This document shows, one piece after another, positions 1,516 through 35,408 of a stretch of 37,196 nt of DNA. Source of the DNA: a phage; sequence record PZ445539.1, one strand, 5' to 3'. The notes below the pieces were generated by a model. The model was given only the letters and a program-made list of their open reading frames with translations. It was not told where the DNA came from and did not search any database. Every line of letters begins with the position of its first letter. Position 1 is the stretch's first letter. Made by a program: the position numbers and the translations under genes.

Positions 1516-2789
1516 TGGAAGAACCTAAATACACGATTGACCTGCGAACCAATAACGGCTGGTGGGCAAGGCTGCAGTCCTGGTTTGTAGGCGGGCGTTT
1601 AGTCACCCCAAATCAGGGCTCACAGACGGGGCCTGTTTCGGCCCACGGACACCTGGGCGATTCATCCATTAATGATGAACGGATACTGCAAATTTCGACG
1701 GTTTGGCGCTGCGTGAGCCTGATTTCAACGCTCACGGCATGCTTACCGCTTGATGTCTTCGAAACCGACCAGAATGACAACCGCAAAAAAGTGGGTTTGA
1801 GCAATCCGCTGGCGCGACTGCTGCGCTACTCACCGAATCAGTACATGACCGCCCAGGAATTCAGGGAGGCCATGACGATGCAGCTCTGTTTCTACGGTAA
1901 CGCGTATGCACTGGTGGACCGCAACAGCGCGGGTGACGTGATCAGCCTTCTCCCGCTTCAGTCTGCCAATATGGATGTGAAACTCGTCGGAAAAAAAGTG
2001 GTTTATCGCTATCAGCGCGACAGCGAATACGCCGACTTTTCGCAGAGAGAGATTTTTCACCTTAAAGGCTTCGGATTCACCGGGCTGGTCGGCCTGTCCC
2101 CCATTGCTTTTGCCTGTAAATCGGCAGGTGTGGCAGTTGCGATGGAGGACCAGCAGCGAGATTTCTTTGCCAATGGCGCCAAGTCTCCGCAAATCCTCTC
2201 AACCGGAGAAAAAGTGCTAACTGAACAGCAGCGCTCGCAGGTCGAAGAGAACTTCAAAGAGATCGCCGGCGGTCCGGTTAAAAAACGCCTCTGGATTCTG
2301 GAAGCGGGCTTTTCCACATCGGCAATTGGCGTAACGCCGCAGGATGCCGAAATGATGGCGTCCCGAAAATTTCAGGTTAGTGAACTGGCGCGATTCTTTG
2401 GCGTACCGCCTCACCTTGTCGGCGATGTCGAGAAGTCAACGAGCTGGGGATCGGGTATCGAGCAGCAGAATCTCGGCTTCCTGCAGTACACGCTGCAGCC
2501 CTATATCTCCCGGTGGGAAAACAGCATTCAGCGGTGGCTTATTCCTGCTAAGGATGTTGGACGTATTCATGCTGAGCACAATCTCGACGGCCTGCTGAGG
2601 GGCGATTCGGCATCCCGCGCAGCCTTTATGAAGGCAATGGGAGAGGCAGGATTACGCACCATCAATGAAATGCGCCGAACGGACAACCTCCCGCCATTGC
2701 CGGGTGGCGATGTGGCAATGCGCCAGTCGCAATACGTGCCGATCACCGACTTAGGAACCAACAAAGAGCCCCGTAATAACGGGGCTTAA
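1512..2789 (+). CDS. portal protein (HK97-family-like)
   Basis: 425-aa ORF directly after TerL with overlapping start (GTG 1512 or ATG 1515); size and position typical of a portal gene. Confidence 0.85.
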   Translation: MMEEPKYTIDLRTNNGWWARLQSWFVGGRLVTPNQGSQTGPVSAHGHLGDSSINDERILQISTVWRCVSLISTLTACLPLDVFETDQNDNRKKVGLSNPLARLLRYSPNQYMTAQEFREAMTMQLCFYGNAYALVDRNSAGDVISLLPLQSANMDVKLVGKKVVYRYQRDSEYADFSQREIFHLKGFGFTGLVGLSPIAFACKSAGVAVAMEDQQRDFFANGAKSPQILSTGEKVLTEQQRSQVEENFKEIAGGPVKKRLWILEAGFSTSAIGVTPQDAEMMASRKFQVSELARFFGVPPHLVGDVEKSTSWGSGIEQQNLGFLQYTLQPYISRWENSIQRWLIPAKDVGRIHAEHNLDGLLRGDSASRAAFMKAMGEAGLRTINEMRRTDNLPPLPGGDVAMRQSQYVPITDLGTNKEPRNNGA

Positions 2790-29609: not shown

Positions 29610-29921
29610 ATGGATCGCCTAATTAGAGAAATGTCGTACCTCTTTACCAAGCAGCATTTTATGGAGCTTCAGGAAACGGCCAAAAACATCGCAATCAGCC
29701 ATAGTGACTTTCCTGAGTGTTTCAGTCTTATTGCTGAGGCCATCGCTGAATTTGTTGAAGACACTCCTGATGATGAGTGGCGAGAGTATGAAAAAATCCT
29801 CATGCACTACGTTGCTATGCGTACTCTGACGCTGTGGGGTAACGGCGATAAAGTTACTGATGTCCAGTGGGCACACCCTGGCTGGTTTGGCACTGCTGAG
29901 AAGGGAGAAACCATTCAATGA
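29610..29921 (+). CDS. hypothetical protein
   Basis: 104 aa; translationally coupled between primase-helicase and Q-like gene. Confidence 0.45.
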   Translation: MDRLIREMSYLFTKQHFMELQETAKNIAISHSDFPECFSLIAEAIAEFVEDTPDDEWREYEKILMHYVAMRTLTLWGNGDKVTDVQWAHPGWFGTAEKGETIQ

Positions 29922-30700
29922 AACTGGAAGCATCACTCAAACATTTTAGTCCTCAGGGAATGCACATCAGCGATGACGTGAAGGGAACTTCTCCGGACCG
30001 CCTTACAGGAACAGATGTAATGGCGGCGATTGGCACCACCAGCAGCCGTGCGCGCTTCGGCCTGGCGGCGTTCTTCGGTAAAGCGGGAATCAGCAAAACG
30101 GATGAACAGCTCGCAGTTCAGGCGCTGGCGCGATATGCGATGGATGTCGCACCGAAGAATGTTCGCAAAGCAGCTGGTGGGCAGTTCGGATGGTGTATGC
30201 AGATGCTGGCACAATTTGCCTTTGCTGATTACTCCCGTTCGGCGGCTACCAGCGTGACATGTCACAGTTGCAGCGGTACCGGGTTTATCTCCGGGAATGA
30301 GGATGTGGTTAAACATCCTGGTATTTTCGACGCCGACGGTGCTGAAGTGGTGGCCCCGAAGATTAAAAATGAGCTGGTGAATAGGGTTTGCGGAACATGC
30401 GGAGGAAAGAAAGTGATCCTTGCCCGGTGCAGGTGTGGCGGTAAAGGCGAAGTGTTGGACCGCAAAGCGACTAAAGACCGCGGCGCACCGGTTTTCAAAA
30501 CGTGTGAACGTTGCTCTGGTAATGGCTTCTCTGCTATCTCCTCGGCGACGGTACACCGTGCCATTTTGAAGCGTCTCCCGGACCTCCATCAATCCTCATG
30601 GTCACGCAACTGGAAACCCTTCTATGAAATGCTGGTGGACACTCTGCGCCAGGGGGAACGTCATGCAGCAGTGGAATTTGAGAAGGCGACAACTTATTAA
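29918..30700 (+). CDS. putative late-gene antiterminator (Q-like), Cys-rich zinc-finger protein
   Basis: Four CxxC pairs, two as CxxCxGxG (CHSCSGTG, CERCSGNG); immediately upstream of a strong promoter-terminator pair and the late/lysis genes. Confidence 0.5.
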   Translation: MKLEASLKHFSPQGMHISDDVKGTSPDRLTGTDVMAAIGTTSSRARFGLAAFFGKAGISKTDEQLAVQALARYAMDVAPKNVRKAAGGQFGWCMQMLAQFAFADYSRSAATSVTCHSCSGTGFISGNEDVVKHPGIFDADGAEVVAPKIKNELVNRVCGTCGGKKVILARCRCGGKGEVLDRKATKDRGAPVFKTCERCSGNGFSAISSATVHRAILKRLPDLHQSSWSRNWKPFYEMLVDTLRQGERHAAVEFEKATTY

Positions 30701-30741
30701 TATGATCGGAGCAAATAGCGACACTTTTTTGCACGTTAGTG

Positions 30742-30772
30742 TTGACTTTGCATAAAACTGTCCTGTATGCTT
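30742..30772 (+). promoter_or_regulatory. candidate late promoter (PR'-like)
   Basis: TTGACT at 30742-30747 with a TATGCT-like -10 element about 18 bp downstream; located between Q-like gene and terminator. Confidence 0.45.
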
Positions 30773-30807
30773 TCCATCGTGGGATATTACGCCTACACGA
30801 CATCAAA

Positions 30808-30830
30808 CCCGCCTCGGCGCGGGTTTTTTT
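30808..30830 (+). terminator. intrinsic terminator (tR'-like) just downstream of late promoter
   Basis: CCCGC-ctcggc-GCGGG hairpin followed by TTTTTTT. Confidence 0.7.
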
Positions 30831-30973
30831 GTGCCTGCAATTCTTCGCGCCACGCTCGGCGCAATTCAACCACAGAGCCTTTCAGGGGTGAGCCATAGGG
30901 AACGGTCGGTGTGACTGTCTCTGTGGGCTGATCATTCCTGAGCGCTGGCTCACCCGCTAAAAGGAAAGTCACT

Positions 30974-31399
30974 ATGTTCGGTATCTTCAAAAAGAAAGCA
31001 CGTAAAGCCGTTACTGAAGTTAAGAAAATGGAAAACCGCGATGCGGTTGAGGCGACTGTATGGGGCGCTTACTCCATTGCGTATGCCGACGGTACCTGCG
31101 ACGCGAAAGAAATCGCCACGCTGGAAAAAACTATTTCGGCACTGCCTGCCTTCGCGCCGTTCGCCGGTGAGATCGCACAGATGAGTAGCAATATTCGTGC
31201 TCGTTACGAAGCTTCACCGCGTTCTGCTAACGCTCAGGCGCTGCGCGAACTGGCTGATGTTGCGGGTACAAATGACGCTGTTGATGTTCTTTGCCTGTGT
31301 CTCGATGTAGCTGACAACGACGGTATCGGTGAAGAAGAAGAGAAACAGCTGAAGAAAATCGCTCAGGCGCTGCAGCTTCCACTGGATCAGTACCTGTGA
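30974..31399 (+). CDS. TerB-like domain protein (first gene of late transcript)
   Basis: 141 aa; two ADG/ADNDG-containing helical repeats (IAYADGTCDAKEIATLEK ... LDVADNDGIGEEEEKQLKKIA) as I recall for the TerB fold; AAGGAAA ribosome-binding site. Confidence 0.55.
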   Translation: MFGIFKKKARKAVTEVKKMENRDAVEATVWGAYSIAYADGTCDAKEIATLEKTISALPAFAPFAGEIAQMSSNIRARYEASPRSANAQALRELADVAGTNDAVDVLCLCLDVADNDGIGEEEEKQLKKIAQALQLPLDQYL

Positions 31400-31551
31400 T
31401 CGGAAAACTGCGCTGGGCAGCCGCCGGGATTTTTTTGTTCCTGGTGGTTGCTATCGACTTCACCAGCAAAATGATGTCCATCCTCGCTGATGGCGTGCTG
31501 GTGGCCGGAGTGATTGCGCTGCTCTGGCCCCTGATTAAATCCAGTAAATAA
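31396..31551 (+). CDS. small membrane protein (51 aa), tentative
   Basis: GTG start overlapping the TerB-like stop; single hydrophobic helix; below ORF-track cutoff. Confidence 0.3.
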   Translation: MIGKLRWAAAGIFLFLVVAIDFTSKMMSILADGVLVAGVIALLWPLIKSSK

Positions 31552-33736: not shown

Positions 33737-33950
33737 AAAACCTCCATCTTATGTGTTGATACCATTAAGGAAAAACCATCCGAGAATAGCCTTCAAATCA
33801 GCCCGTAATCAAATCTATTAGCTCATTGTTTGATCTACAAGCGCATCGCACGCGCACATCAAAGAAAGACTTTCAGCTGTGAGCCTGGGCAAACCGCTAA
33901 CTTTCGGCGGCTTTGCCGTGCGACAGGCTCACGCCTAAAAGGAAAATCAA

Positions 33951-35408
33951 ATGCAGGTCACTATTAATGGTGTCCAGTATGCACCCGCCTGTGCAATTTC
34001 ATCGCGGATCGGCGTTGCCATTTCGACGCATCAGCGCTCAGACGTTTTAAAACGTGCACTCGAACAGCACATGAAGCATCTTCCCGCTGGCGCGCGAGTG
34101 GTGGTTGTAGATGATGGTTCAAAACCTGCAGCGGTAGTTCCCCACGGCGTGCAGCTGCTTCGCCATGAAACTTCACTCGGCATTGTTGCTTCGAAGAACG
34201 CCAGCCTGTCAGCCCTGATGGATGCCGGGTGCGAGCATCTTTTTCTGTGGGATGATGATGCCTGGCCCATCGCCGACAACTGGCATCTTCCCTACATCGA
34301 ATCACCCGAGCCACACCTGGCTTACCAGTTTCTCGATTTGGCTGGTCGCAATAAGCTGAATGACCTTTCGGTGCTTTACCGTGACGATCAGCATGTGGCG
34401 TACACCGGACAGCGCGGCGTGATGCTGTATTACCACCGTAGCGCCATCGAGAGGGTGGGCGGATTCGATCCGGTTTATGGTCGCGGCATGTACGAGCACA
34501 GCGACCTCGCCTTGCGCATCCATAACGCTGGACTGACTACGTGGGCTTACGCTGATGTCCTCGGTTCAGACAAGCTGATTCATTCCCTCGATGAGCATGA
34601 AGCGGTGGAGCGTTCGGTACCGAGGCCCGACCGCCAGGCGCTGGTGGAACGTAATGTTAAGATCCACAATGAACGACGTGATACCGGCTTTACCGGTTAT
34701 GTTGAATATCGGCGTCAGCGCGACGTGGTTATCACTACGTTACTGACCAGCCAGCCTGACCCTCAACGCGGTACGAAAATGATGGCCTCGCCTGACATGC
34801 TGACCAAGTGGGCGGCCTCGCTTCGGAATTGTGGGCGTATTGCGCTGGTGGATGAATTACTGACGGCCCCGGCAGATGTTGAGCTGTATCTCGTACCTGA
34901 CGTAAAGATGAATGTCTATTTCCGGCGCTGGCTGCACATCTGGCAGCACCTGCGCGATCACCCTGAATATCGTTTCGTCTGGTGTACAGATGGTACCGAT
35001 GTCGAAATGCTCCGCGCACCGTGGGAAGAAATGCAGCCCGGGAATGTTTACGTCGGTTCTGAACCGAAGACATACGCCGACACCTGGGCGAAACAGAATC
35101 ATCCTGAGCGTATCTATCAGGAATTCATTGAAGCGCACCGCGGCGATGTGATGCTTAACGCTGGTCTGCTGGGTGGCACCCGCGCTGATGTAATGGCGTT
35201 CGCTCACGGCATCATCCGTCTTTACTACCGGATCGAGAGTTATCGTTTCTGGAAGAAAGAACAGGTTGGCGCCGCGGTGGGTGACATGCTGGCGTTCGGT
35301 ATTGTCGCGCATTCATTCGCTGACAGGCTGGTCACCGGCCCTCTGGTACATACCGTTTTCAAAACTGATGGTATCGGTAAGGAGGCCGCATGGTGGAAAC
35401 ACAAGTGA
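33951..35408 (+). CDS. putative two-domain glycosyltransferase (N-terminal GT2-like GT-A fold; C-terminal second nucleotide-sugar transferase-like domain)
   Basis: N-terminus has GT2-like pattern: VAISTHQRS...VVVVDDGS...LWDDDAW (DxD)...GGFD; 485 aa; no transmembrane segments seen. Confidence 0.55.
   Translation: MQVTINGVQYAPACAISSRIGVAISTHQRSDVLKRALEQHMKHLPAGARVVVVDDGSKPAAVVPHGVQLLRHETSLGIVASKNASLSALMDAGCEHLFLWDDDAWPIADNWHLPYIESPEPHLAYQFLDLAGRNKLNDLSVLYRDDQHVAYTGQRGVMLYYHRSAIERVGGFDPVYGRGMYEHSDLALRIHNAGLTTWAYADVLGSDKLIHSLDEHEAVERSVPRPDRQALVERNVKIHNERRDTGFTGYVEYRRQRDVVITTLLTSQPDPQRGTKMMASPDMLTKWAASLRNCGRIALVDELLTAPADVELYLVPDVKMNVYFRRWLHIWQHLRDHPEYRFVWCTDGTDVEMLRAPWEEMQPGNVYVGSEPKTYADTWAKQNHPERIYQEFIEAHRGDVMLNAGLLGGTRADVMAFAHGIIRLYYRIESYRFWKKEQVGAAVGDMLAFGIVAHSFADRLVTGPLVHTVFKTDGIGKEAAWWKHK

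Follow-up and report, generated by a model that had tools for sequence, protein, structure and literature searches.

The late region of a lambdoid phage raised the question of why two quite different accessory genes, one for a TerB-like protein and the other for a glycosyltransferase, should be preceded by the same kind of 5' leader. The window, i.e., the whole analyzed stretch of 37,196 nucleotides (nt; PZ445539.1), corresponds to Escherichia phage LMessi (PP925823.1, 100% identity), an HK97/mEp-like lambdoid phage. A sequence-only reading of this DNA had noticed a hairpin and a ribosome-binding site upstream of both genes. We found that both hairpins are parts of elements of ~110-130 nt, copy A in front of the TerB-like gene and copy B in front of the glycosyltransferase gene. 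They belong to a family of RNA leaders with a common architecture, covariation in every helix, a characteristic position relative to the terminator, the Shine-Dalgarno (SD) sequence and the ATG, and a diverse set of downstream (cargo) genes. The leaders, their cargo genes and the terminator described below all lie on the plus strand of the window.

Upstream of the TerB-like gene, the inverted repeat GGGTGAGCCA (30886-30895) / TGGCTCACCC (30946-30955) is followed by GCTAAAAGGAAAGTCACTATG and the ATG at 30974, and upstream of the glycosyltransferase gene the repeat GTGAGCCTG (33879-33887) / CAGGCTCAC (33924-33932) is followed by GCCTAAAAGGAAAATCAAATG and the ATG at 33951; the strings and coordinates reported earlier were verified in both cases. 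The likeness of the two leaders exceeds chance: the pattern GTGAGCC-N20-50-GGCTCAC is expected 0.02 times per window and GGCTCACNNCTAAAAGGAAA 0.04 times, and CTTTCAGNNGTGAGCC is identical in copies A and B. A covariance model built only from relatives of copy B matched exactly these two sites in the window: copy B (33841-33953, from hairpin P1 to the ATG) with 126.9 bits (E 3e-31) and copy A (30847-30976, likewise from P1 to the ATG) with 39.6 bits (E 2e-7). In the folding check, the predicted folds of both leaders were more stable than those of shuffled sequences, with -42.3 kcal/mol (z -2.0) and -35.7 kcal/mol (z -3.0). The leader structure shared by the two genes is homologous and conserved beyond sequence. 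The sequence-only reading had caught just the middle stem (helix d below); rather than a single hairpin, the element proved to be a much longer fold that also contains another hairpin and two pairings of the pseudoknot type. It begins ~40 nt upstream of the quoted stem, at a small hairpin. In both copies, the inverted repeat continues outward to CTTTCAG / CTAAAAG, into the ribosome-binding site, and the small hairpin common to both lies ~25 nt further upstream of this extended repeat.

The order of the parts from 5' to 3' is hairpin P1 (4-6 base pairs (bp), with a loop of 6-8 nt), a short, variable linker, segment b, helix c, a small and variable internal loop, helix d, helix e, a bulge, the SD sequence and the ATG. 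Helix c (CUUUCAG / CUAAAAG) contains a conserved C-A mismatch and carries the first bases of the SD sequence, helix d is GUGAGCC.. / ..GGCUCAC, and helix e is variable, with an extra small hairpin with a GGYG loop in some subtypes. The bulge of 5-7 nt is located on the 3' side, between helices e and d. The SD sequence stands at the 3' foot of the fold in both window copies, and the ATG follows 6-10 nt beyond (median over the parsed copies, 8 nt). There are two long-range pairings, PK1 between the P1 loop and the 3' bulge and PK2 between segment b (5' of helix c) and the apical loop of e. Although these cross P1, c, d and e, no strand has more than one partner, so all seven helices are compatible with one another. 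Segment b adjoins helix c but pairs with the tip of e, so that a fold with every helix present needs e to be bent back along c/d, and the lengths are compatible with this (e plus PK2 ~16 bp, c plus d ~18 bp). In such a three-dimensional picture, with all helices formed at once, the bulge-P1 helix would be placed at the hinge; PK1 and PK2 may also pair between molecules instead of in cis.

In copy A, a type A leader, P1 (GCGCC-ACGCUC-GGCGC) spans positions 30847-30862 and was 100% paired in the type A alignment, with CG->UA once. The 5' strand of PK1 is CGCUC of the P1 loop (30853-30857), with the partner GAGCG in the bulge between stems e and d (30940-30944), whereas PK2 joins CCACAGAG (30870-30877) and CUCUGUGG in the apical loop (30919-30926). 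The 5' strands of helices c (CUUUCAG, 30879-30885) and d (GGGUGAGCCA, 30886-30895) are followed by the variable inner stem e (GGGAA.GGUCGG / CUGAUC.UUCCU) with its apical region (30898-30939), the 3' strands of d (UGGCUCACCC, 30946-30955) and c (CUAAAAG, 30957-30963), and the SD sequence AAGGA (30961-30965). Within 30904-30933, the type A GGUCGG can pair either with CUGAUC, giving a longer stem e, or with UGACUGU, giving a small apical hairpin; as both pairings show some covariation, this part may be a local conformational switch. Copy B, a type B leader, has P1 (GCGC-AUCGCAC-GCGC) at 33841-33855, PK1 between UCGCAC of the P1 loop (33846-33851) and GUGCGA of the bulge (33918-33923), and PK2 between GAAAG (33864-33868) and CUUUC of the apical loop (33901-33905). 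Its helices c (CUUUCAG, 33870-33876, with CUAAAAG, 33935-33941) and d (GUGAGCCUG, 33879-33887, with CAGGCUCAC, 33924-33932) enclose the inner stem e (GGCAAACCGC / GGCGG.UUUGCC) and its loop (33888-33917), and the SD sequence AAGGA lies at 33939-33943.

Pairing was assessed in alignments of 104 type B, 23 type A and 68 sequences of a third, divergent type C, with slid partners as the control. In type B, 93.2% of the cells were paired versus 31-47% when slid, in type A 94.8% versus 36-46%, and in type C 96.5% versus 34-41%. PK1 was paired in 98.2% in type B, where CG->UA occurred at two pairs in 8-9 sequences, and in 99.1% in type A. One pair of type B stem e was CG in 53, GC in 28, UG in 17 and UA in 3 sequences. 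PK2 of type A was 97.8% paired, with one pair AU in 18 and GC in 5 sequences and another CG in 22 and UA in 1, and RNAalifold picked this helix unprompted. PK2 of type B was judged by a per-sequence helix search and permutation because register shifts blurred the MAFFT columns (76.7% paired); in the PK2 cross-pairing test, own partners gave -7.75 kcal/mol versus -5.83 kcal/mol for foreign ones, and no permutation reached the observed value.

The strongest covariation evidence is the comparison between types. Approximately nine complementary sequence pairs fill PK1: UCGCAC/GUGCGA, UCGCAU/AUGCGA, UCGUAC/GUACGA, UCUCAC/GUGAGA, CGCUC/GAGCG, CGCCC/GGGCG, GGCUC/GAGCC, CCGCA/UGCGG and CCGCAAU/AUUGCGG. 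Approximately eleven fill PK2: GAAAGU/ACUUUC, GAGAG/CUCUC, CGAUAA/UUAUCG, CGAGACA/UGUCUCG, CCCGAG/CUCGGG, CCACAGAG/CUCUGUGG, CCGCAGA/UCUGCGG, CCUGCAGA/UCUGCAGG, CCGUAGAG/CUCUACGG, CGUCGA/UCGACG and, in P22, CCACCGA/UCGGUGG. Helix d also changes between types on both strands (GUGAGCC/GGCUCAC versus AUGAGCC/GGUUCAU; GCCUUUG/CAAAGG versus GCCCUUG/CAAGGG). A distant copy in the Erwinia jumbo phage Asesino keeps both pseudoknots with new sequences.

How widespread is this leader? When it was used alone in BLAST, it was found with 92-97% identity before different genes in mEp213, mEp043, mEp237, phi80 and HK639, and more distant copies came from Klebsiella, Enterobacter and Erwinia phages. The motif search in related phages that had been proposed thus found the same leader in front of quite different genes. 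This fits both the common post-transcriptional control and the exchangeable cassettes that had been suggested for the two genes, although the control itself is inferred. Pattern scans of IMG/VR gave at least 120 loci for the first pattern and at least 120 for the type C pattern. The covariance model built from 104 B-type copies also matched a second phi80 copy, upstream of rha, and the divergent subtype C (~135 nt), present in P22 (before rha), ES18, BTP1, HK544 and several Stx phages. Pattern scans, BLAST and the covariance model together yielded at least 259 parsed copies (118 B, 111 C and 30 A), with two types at several loci. Among the matches listed, all copies were in Enterobacterales phages or prophages, e.g., P22, phi80, ES18, HK639 and Stx phages. 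Megablast with the query variants found B in 47, A in 13 and C in 7 of 5426 complete E. coli genomes, and the matches in the plasmid database were phage-sized replicons. In GTDB, with one genome per species, the pattern gave mostly chance matches in unrelated phyla and 17 true copies with an SD sequence and ATG, all in Enterobacteriaceae genera except one on a 700-bp scaffold filed under Kocuria. Because its sequence is identical to E. coli phage DNA, this 'Kocuria sabuli' scaffold looks like a contaminant. Near-identical enterobacterial lambdoid sequence also occurs in phages whose recorded hosts are Elizabethkingia, Aeromonas and Actinobacillus (OM284015.1, MH178096.1 and PP818812.1).

The virulent jumbo phage Asesino carries a diverged type A leader (locus positions 1083-1221) with terB directly after tRNA-Cys; therefore, the leader-TerB unit has spread outside the temperate lambdoid phages. 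In the Evi copy, a run of 11 G replaces GGGGTG in stem d (locus positions 2540-2552), which likely reflects a sequencing or assembly error, or decay. Decayed copies were also encountered: Gifsy-1 retains the 5' half alone (locus positions ~2005-2060), copy L344 lacks the PK1 bulge, and copy L066 (3024-3122), in which the bulge and some of stem d are gone, is nevertheless followed by an intact glycosyltransferase gene. A relation of the Gifsy-1 match to IsrK was rejected, as the match comprises the decayed 5' half only and stands after an antirepressor-like gene downstream of Q, whereas isrK is located upstream of orf45 and Q.

The cargo is very diverse. Grouping the downstream open reading frames (ORFs) at 50% identity gave 51 clusters behind leaders of types A and B and 18 behind type C, and 200 distinct downstream proteins still fell into 14 unrelated groups when linked by any common domain. 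Named families include TerB, GT2 glycosyltransferases, Rha, KilA-N, the P22 antirepressor N-domain, ORF11CD3, PF09327 proteins and three kinds of HNH endonucleases; for most cargo proteins, no function was assigned. Members of one gene family can sit behind leaders of different types, and many families can share a leader type. Of 44 representative downstream proteins, 11 contained the tail-tip domain PF09327 (J-like receptor-binding tip), among them the one at phi80 locus positions 2112-2837. Although their genes lie away from the tail operon, and their N-terminal modules are shuffled, these 11 may be free receptor-binding or exclusion proteins.

The orientation of the leader relative to the gene is constant in all copies. 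A T-run or terminator stands directly upstream of 30/30 A, 88/115 B and 106/110 C copies, tRNA genes do so in Evi and Asesino, and in HK639 the leader with its gene lies between two annotated terminators within the tail-gene region. No sigma-70-like promoter was seen in or before either window copy, the late promoter itself apart, and the sequence upstream of P1 showed no conservation among copies. The identification of the leader as a classical moron promoter region was rejected on these two grounds; flanking terminators and insertion between conserved phage genes, as in morons, were found. Since the leaders have no promoter of their own and lie behind a terminator, antiterminated late transcription would be the only source of the leader RNA.

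In the window, the Q gene (29918-30700) is followed by a late-promoter-like site (30742-30771) and an intrinsic, tR'-like terminator (30805-30832), which precedes copy A. The TerB-like gene (PF05099; 30974-31399) is the cargo of copy A, and a DUF3927 gene (31396-31551) comes next. Lysis genes and an opposite-strand ORF lie 5' of copy B, whose cargo gene (33951-35408; 485 amino acids, weak GT2 match) is followed by the genes for a second transferase, an HNH endonuclease and the terminase. The late-promoter-like site and terminator 3' of Q (30742-30832) would yield a short 6S-like RNA, and this region has weak, sub-threshold Rfam similarity to leader and small RNA families, isrK among them. The small 'hypothetical protein' ORFs of LMessi (30739-30891 and 33830-33967) cross the promoter, terminator or leader RNA and are probably not genes.

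What might the leader do? The reading that we tentatively favor, at somewhat less than an even chance, is that of a portable cis-acting mRNA leader which gates translation initiation of cargo genes inside late operons. It is favored because the contact of the foot with the ribosome-binding site is the one functional contact kept in all types: in types A and B, CUUU pairs with AAAG of AAAAGGA, and in the predicted minimum-energy fold of type C, the near-invariant CC just 5' of the long helix pairs with GG of the SD sequence. The leader would form the 5' edge of exchangeable accessory-gene cassettes in late operons, and its RNA would be made when antiterminated (Q-modified) polymerase reads through the intrinsic terminator. 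The compact fold, adjoining the SD sequence on its 5' side and with its foot paired to it, would then set or gate binding of the 30S subunit to the cargo gene, regardless of the neighboring sequence. We infer that translation would be the process affected; any modulation could come from a host factor or a physical cue loosening PK1 or PK2. RNA thermometers of the ROSE and fourU types are short, imperfect hairpins in which a U-rich stretch holds the SD sequence and which melt near 37-42 C. Helix c, with its CUUU/AAAG pairing and conserved C-A mismatch, resembles a fourU stem and sits within a ~30-bp fold with two pseudoknots.

Several observations weigh against this gate. In the nested-only ensemble, the SD windows of the two window leaders were 0.68 and 0.56 unpaired, and the SD sequences of both were no more hidden than those of most genes of LMessi; within nested structures, occlusion by helix c alone is therefore weak. 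Types A, B and C have no conserved unpaired core in common, which leaves them without an evident sensing pocket. The decayed copies L066 and L344 precede intact genes, hence the fold is not essential for expression. The apparent invariance of helices c and d within types is owed in part to the search patterns, which prescribed both. No expression, probing or processing data on the leader were found.

A more specific form of regulation, somewhat doubtful in our estimate, would make the leaders a class of trans-regulated riboregulators, i.e., a double-pseudoknot operator that is read by a host factor or responds to a physical cue and with which temperate enterobacterial phages would gate exchanged cargo in late transcripts. 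Candidates for the recognizing factor are proteins of the nucleoid, of the ribosome or with RNA-binding activity, as well as the 30S subunit. The rha genes bring a host factor into view. As summarized in PMC4936722, rha of phi80 and P22 is reported to be deleterious in IHF-deficient hosts and regulated by IHF. As both rha genes carry the leader, the host factor may act through it, and the leader could be a candidate site through which host physiology controls Rha. An IHF consensus (WATCAANNNNTTR) in the linker was rejected, the fit being poor by eye and unconserved.

The main rival to the translational gate, which we regard as doubtful, concerns mRNA decay and processing. The terminator hairpin would block 3'-to-5' exonucleases for the upstream segment, while the knotted fold would be a 5' barrier for the cargo cistron. 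Once the RNA had been cut in the U-rich spacer or an upstream tRNA had been released, this barrier would protect the cistron from RNase E that enters or scans in a 5'-end-dependent manner, and a long late transcript would end up as several units, each with its own stability. The near-constant company of an upstream terminator and U-tract and the tRNA genes directly upstream in Evi and Asesino agree with such an insulator, and after cleavage in the U-tract P1 would become a 5'-terminal hairpin. The weak SD occlusion also speaks for it, and an elaborate, near-fully paired fold lacking a conserved unpaired core suits a mechanical barrier. However, a barrier would not need the tight, conserved contact between foot and SD sequence found in three types, and approximately one-quarter of the B copies have no terminator.

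Less probable still, and unlikely in our view, is a passive context insulator or standby platform, in which the upstream nucleotides would be locked into a fold of their own, and thus kept from pairing with the attached coding sequence, and the stretch from SD to ATG left open for reliable, constitutive translation of any cargo. That one leader family precedes at least 14 unrelated protein groups, that the SD-to-ATG stretch is A-rich and mostly unpaired, and that linkers vary freely would all be expected of it. One stable hairpin would suffice for this purpose, though, whereas the two extra long-range helices, kept through many compensatory changes, point to a specific three-dimensional shape that is recognized or resists something.

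A small-molecule riboswitch or a ribozyme is unlikely. Pseudoknotted leaders overlapping the SD sequence are typical of several riboswitch classes (SAM-II, preQ1-II), and the strongly conserved structure could suggest a ligand that stabilizes the pseudoknotted fold and shuts the ribosome-binding site. This is very improbable, given that junction and loop nucleotides are not conserved across A, B and C, nearly all loop bases are spent on PK1 and PK2, variation is seen in the linkers and in the internal loop between c and d, no pathway or transport function unites the cargo genes, and Rfam gave no matches. Even less credence is due to a self-cleaving ribozyme or an RNase III site excising the cargo mRNA from the late transcript. 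With ~25 bp stacked across helices c, d and e and interrupted by small internal loops, the hairpin offers the two or so coaxial turns of double-stranded RNA expected of an RNase III substrate and is similar to phage RNase III sites, and the double-pseudoknot topology is common among small ribozymes; still, the three types have no common unpaired nucleotides resembling a catalytic core, the Rfam ribozyme families match nothing, and an RNase III substrate would leave the pseudoknot covariation unexplained. Least probable of all is a DNA-level element (a site resembling attC or a MITE, at which exchanged cassettes would recombine or end, or a palindrome bound by a protein): the leaders do lie at borders of mosaic segments, BLAST matches stop at the leader in many phages, and homologous recombination in conserved leaders probably drives cassette swapping as a by-product, but the orientation to the gene is fixed with the SD sequence inside the element, the arms are anywhere between 38 and 60 nt apart, five helices, including the two pseudoknotted ones, show the compensatory changes that are a hallmark of a folded single strand, and inspection of 250+ copies gave no GTTRRRY-type cores, target duplications or linked recombinase. 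The attC (RYYYAAC...GTTRRRY), MITE and palindromic operator identities were rejected on orientation, arm spacing and pseudoknot covariation. A role of the B-type loop UUAACUUU as a T7 'epsilon'-type enhancer was dismissed, since this loop changes in step with segment b and is entirely different in the remaining variants.

The leader also bears on the annotation of well-known phages. In P22 (NC_002371.2 37500-41724), a type C copy (segment positions 1968-2148) lies between gene 15/Rz1 and rha, preceded by an unannotated terminator-like hairpin. The annotated GTG start of P22 rha (ORF201; record 39575) falls within the fold, and the ATG at segment position 2146, with the SD sequence GAAGG, is likely the better candidate. 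In phi80, one copy stands before rha after an annotated terminator and the other before gp66 (locus positions 400-528 and 1994-2106). PHI80_65 (locus 1989-2288, minus strand) runs across the leader RNA and is probably not a gene. Several phage records draw protein starts or small ORFs over leader RNA in this way.

Rfam 15 (4227 models) gave nothing over the element, whether the whole window was searched at gathering thresholds or both copies at E<=10, and no match to the P22, phi80, Asesino and type C copies at E<=1. No tRNA- or tmRNA-like cloverleaf was found in the copies by ARAGORN or the Rfam tRNA model. RefSeq annotation holds no RNA feature at any listed E. coli match, and the leader is undescribed in the literature searched on morons, lambdoid phages, pseudoknots, tciA, prophage structured RNA and rha/IHF.

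If these findings hold, the leaders would constitute an undescribed structured RNA family with unusually clear covariation in textbook phages such as P22, phi80 and ES18 and in Stx phages. They would act as a common 'plug' by which lambdoid phages express swapped-in accessory genes, among them those for antirepressor-like regulators, HNH nucleases, TerB, glycosyltransferases and proteins with receptor-binding domains. The leader would then offer a mutable target for the old question of cargo-gene dosage within late operons and a testable handle on IHF-dependent Rha toxicity. For phage annotation, it marks cassette boundaries and exposes miscalled starts, as in P22 rha, and spurious small ORFs. 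In synthetic biology, it could serve as a ready-made, compact, insulator-like part.

The leader, not annotated so far, is best described as a structural variant of the structured cis-acting mRNA leaders, and the family itself is well supported. How does it compare with known systems? As with the morons of lambdoid phages, horizontally exchanged accessory genes lie among essential late genes and have terminators at their borders. A moron (the Juhala/Hendrix concept) by definition has its own promoter (PMC3594210); unlike morons, the cassettes described here have none that we found, and the shared structured RNA leader is absent from the moron literature retrieved. The put RNA of HK022 is likewise a cis-acting structured RNA of lambdoid phages conserved by covariation, but it is a pair of adjacent simple stem-loops that closely follow the early promoters PL/PR and act on polymerase, whereas the leader follows terminators in the late operon, abuts the start codon and occurs in several copies per genome; identity with put was rejected on position and topology.

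The RNase III processing hairpins of phage polycistronic mRNAs (T7 R sites, lambda N leader) are likewise long and interrupted, are placed between cistrons and in some cases cover the ribosome-binding site that follows, but they have no covarying loop-bulge or loop-strand pairings and are not a portable sequence family. Flavivirus xrRNA and RNase E scanning obstacles resemble the leader in being compact, knotted and near-fully paired folds at the 5' edge of the protected RNA; the leader has neither sequence nor topological homology to either, and nuclease stalling is an analogy only. SAM-II and preQ1-II riboswitches are compact pseudoknotted 5' leaders whose 3' strand reaches the SD sequence, as here, whereas the phage leader has no conserved ligand pocket, common cargo pathway or Rfam match. 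The E. coli rpsO/S15 and T4 gene 32 leaders have a pseudoknot just 5' of, or overlapping, the SD sequence and a cis effect on 30S binding. Those, however, are single-gene autoregulatory sites bound by their own product, while the phage leader family serves at least 14 unrelated protein groups and combines two long-range helices with a ~25-bp hairpin.

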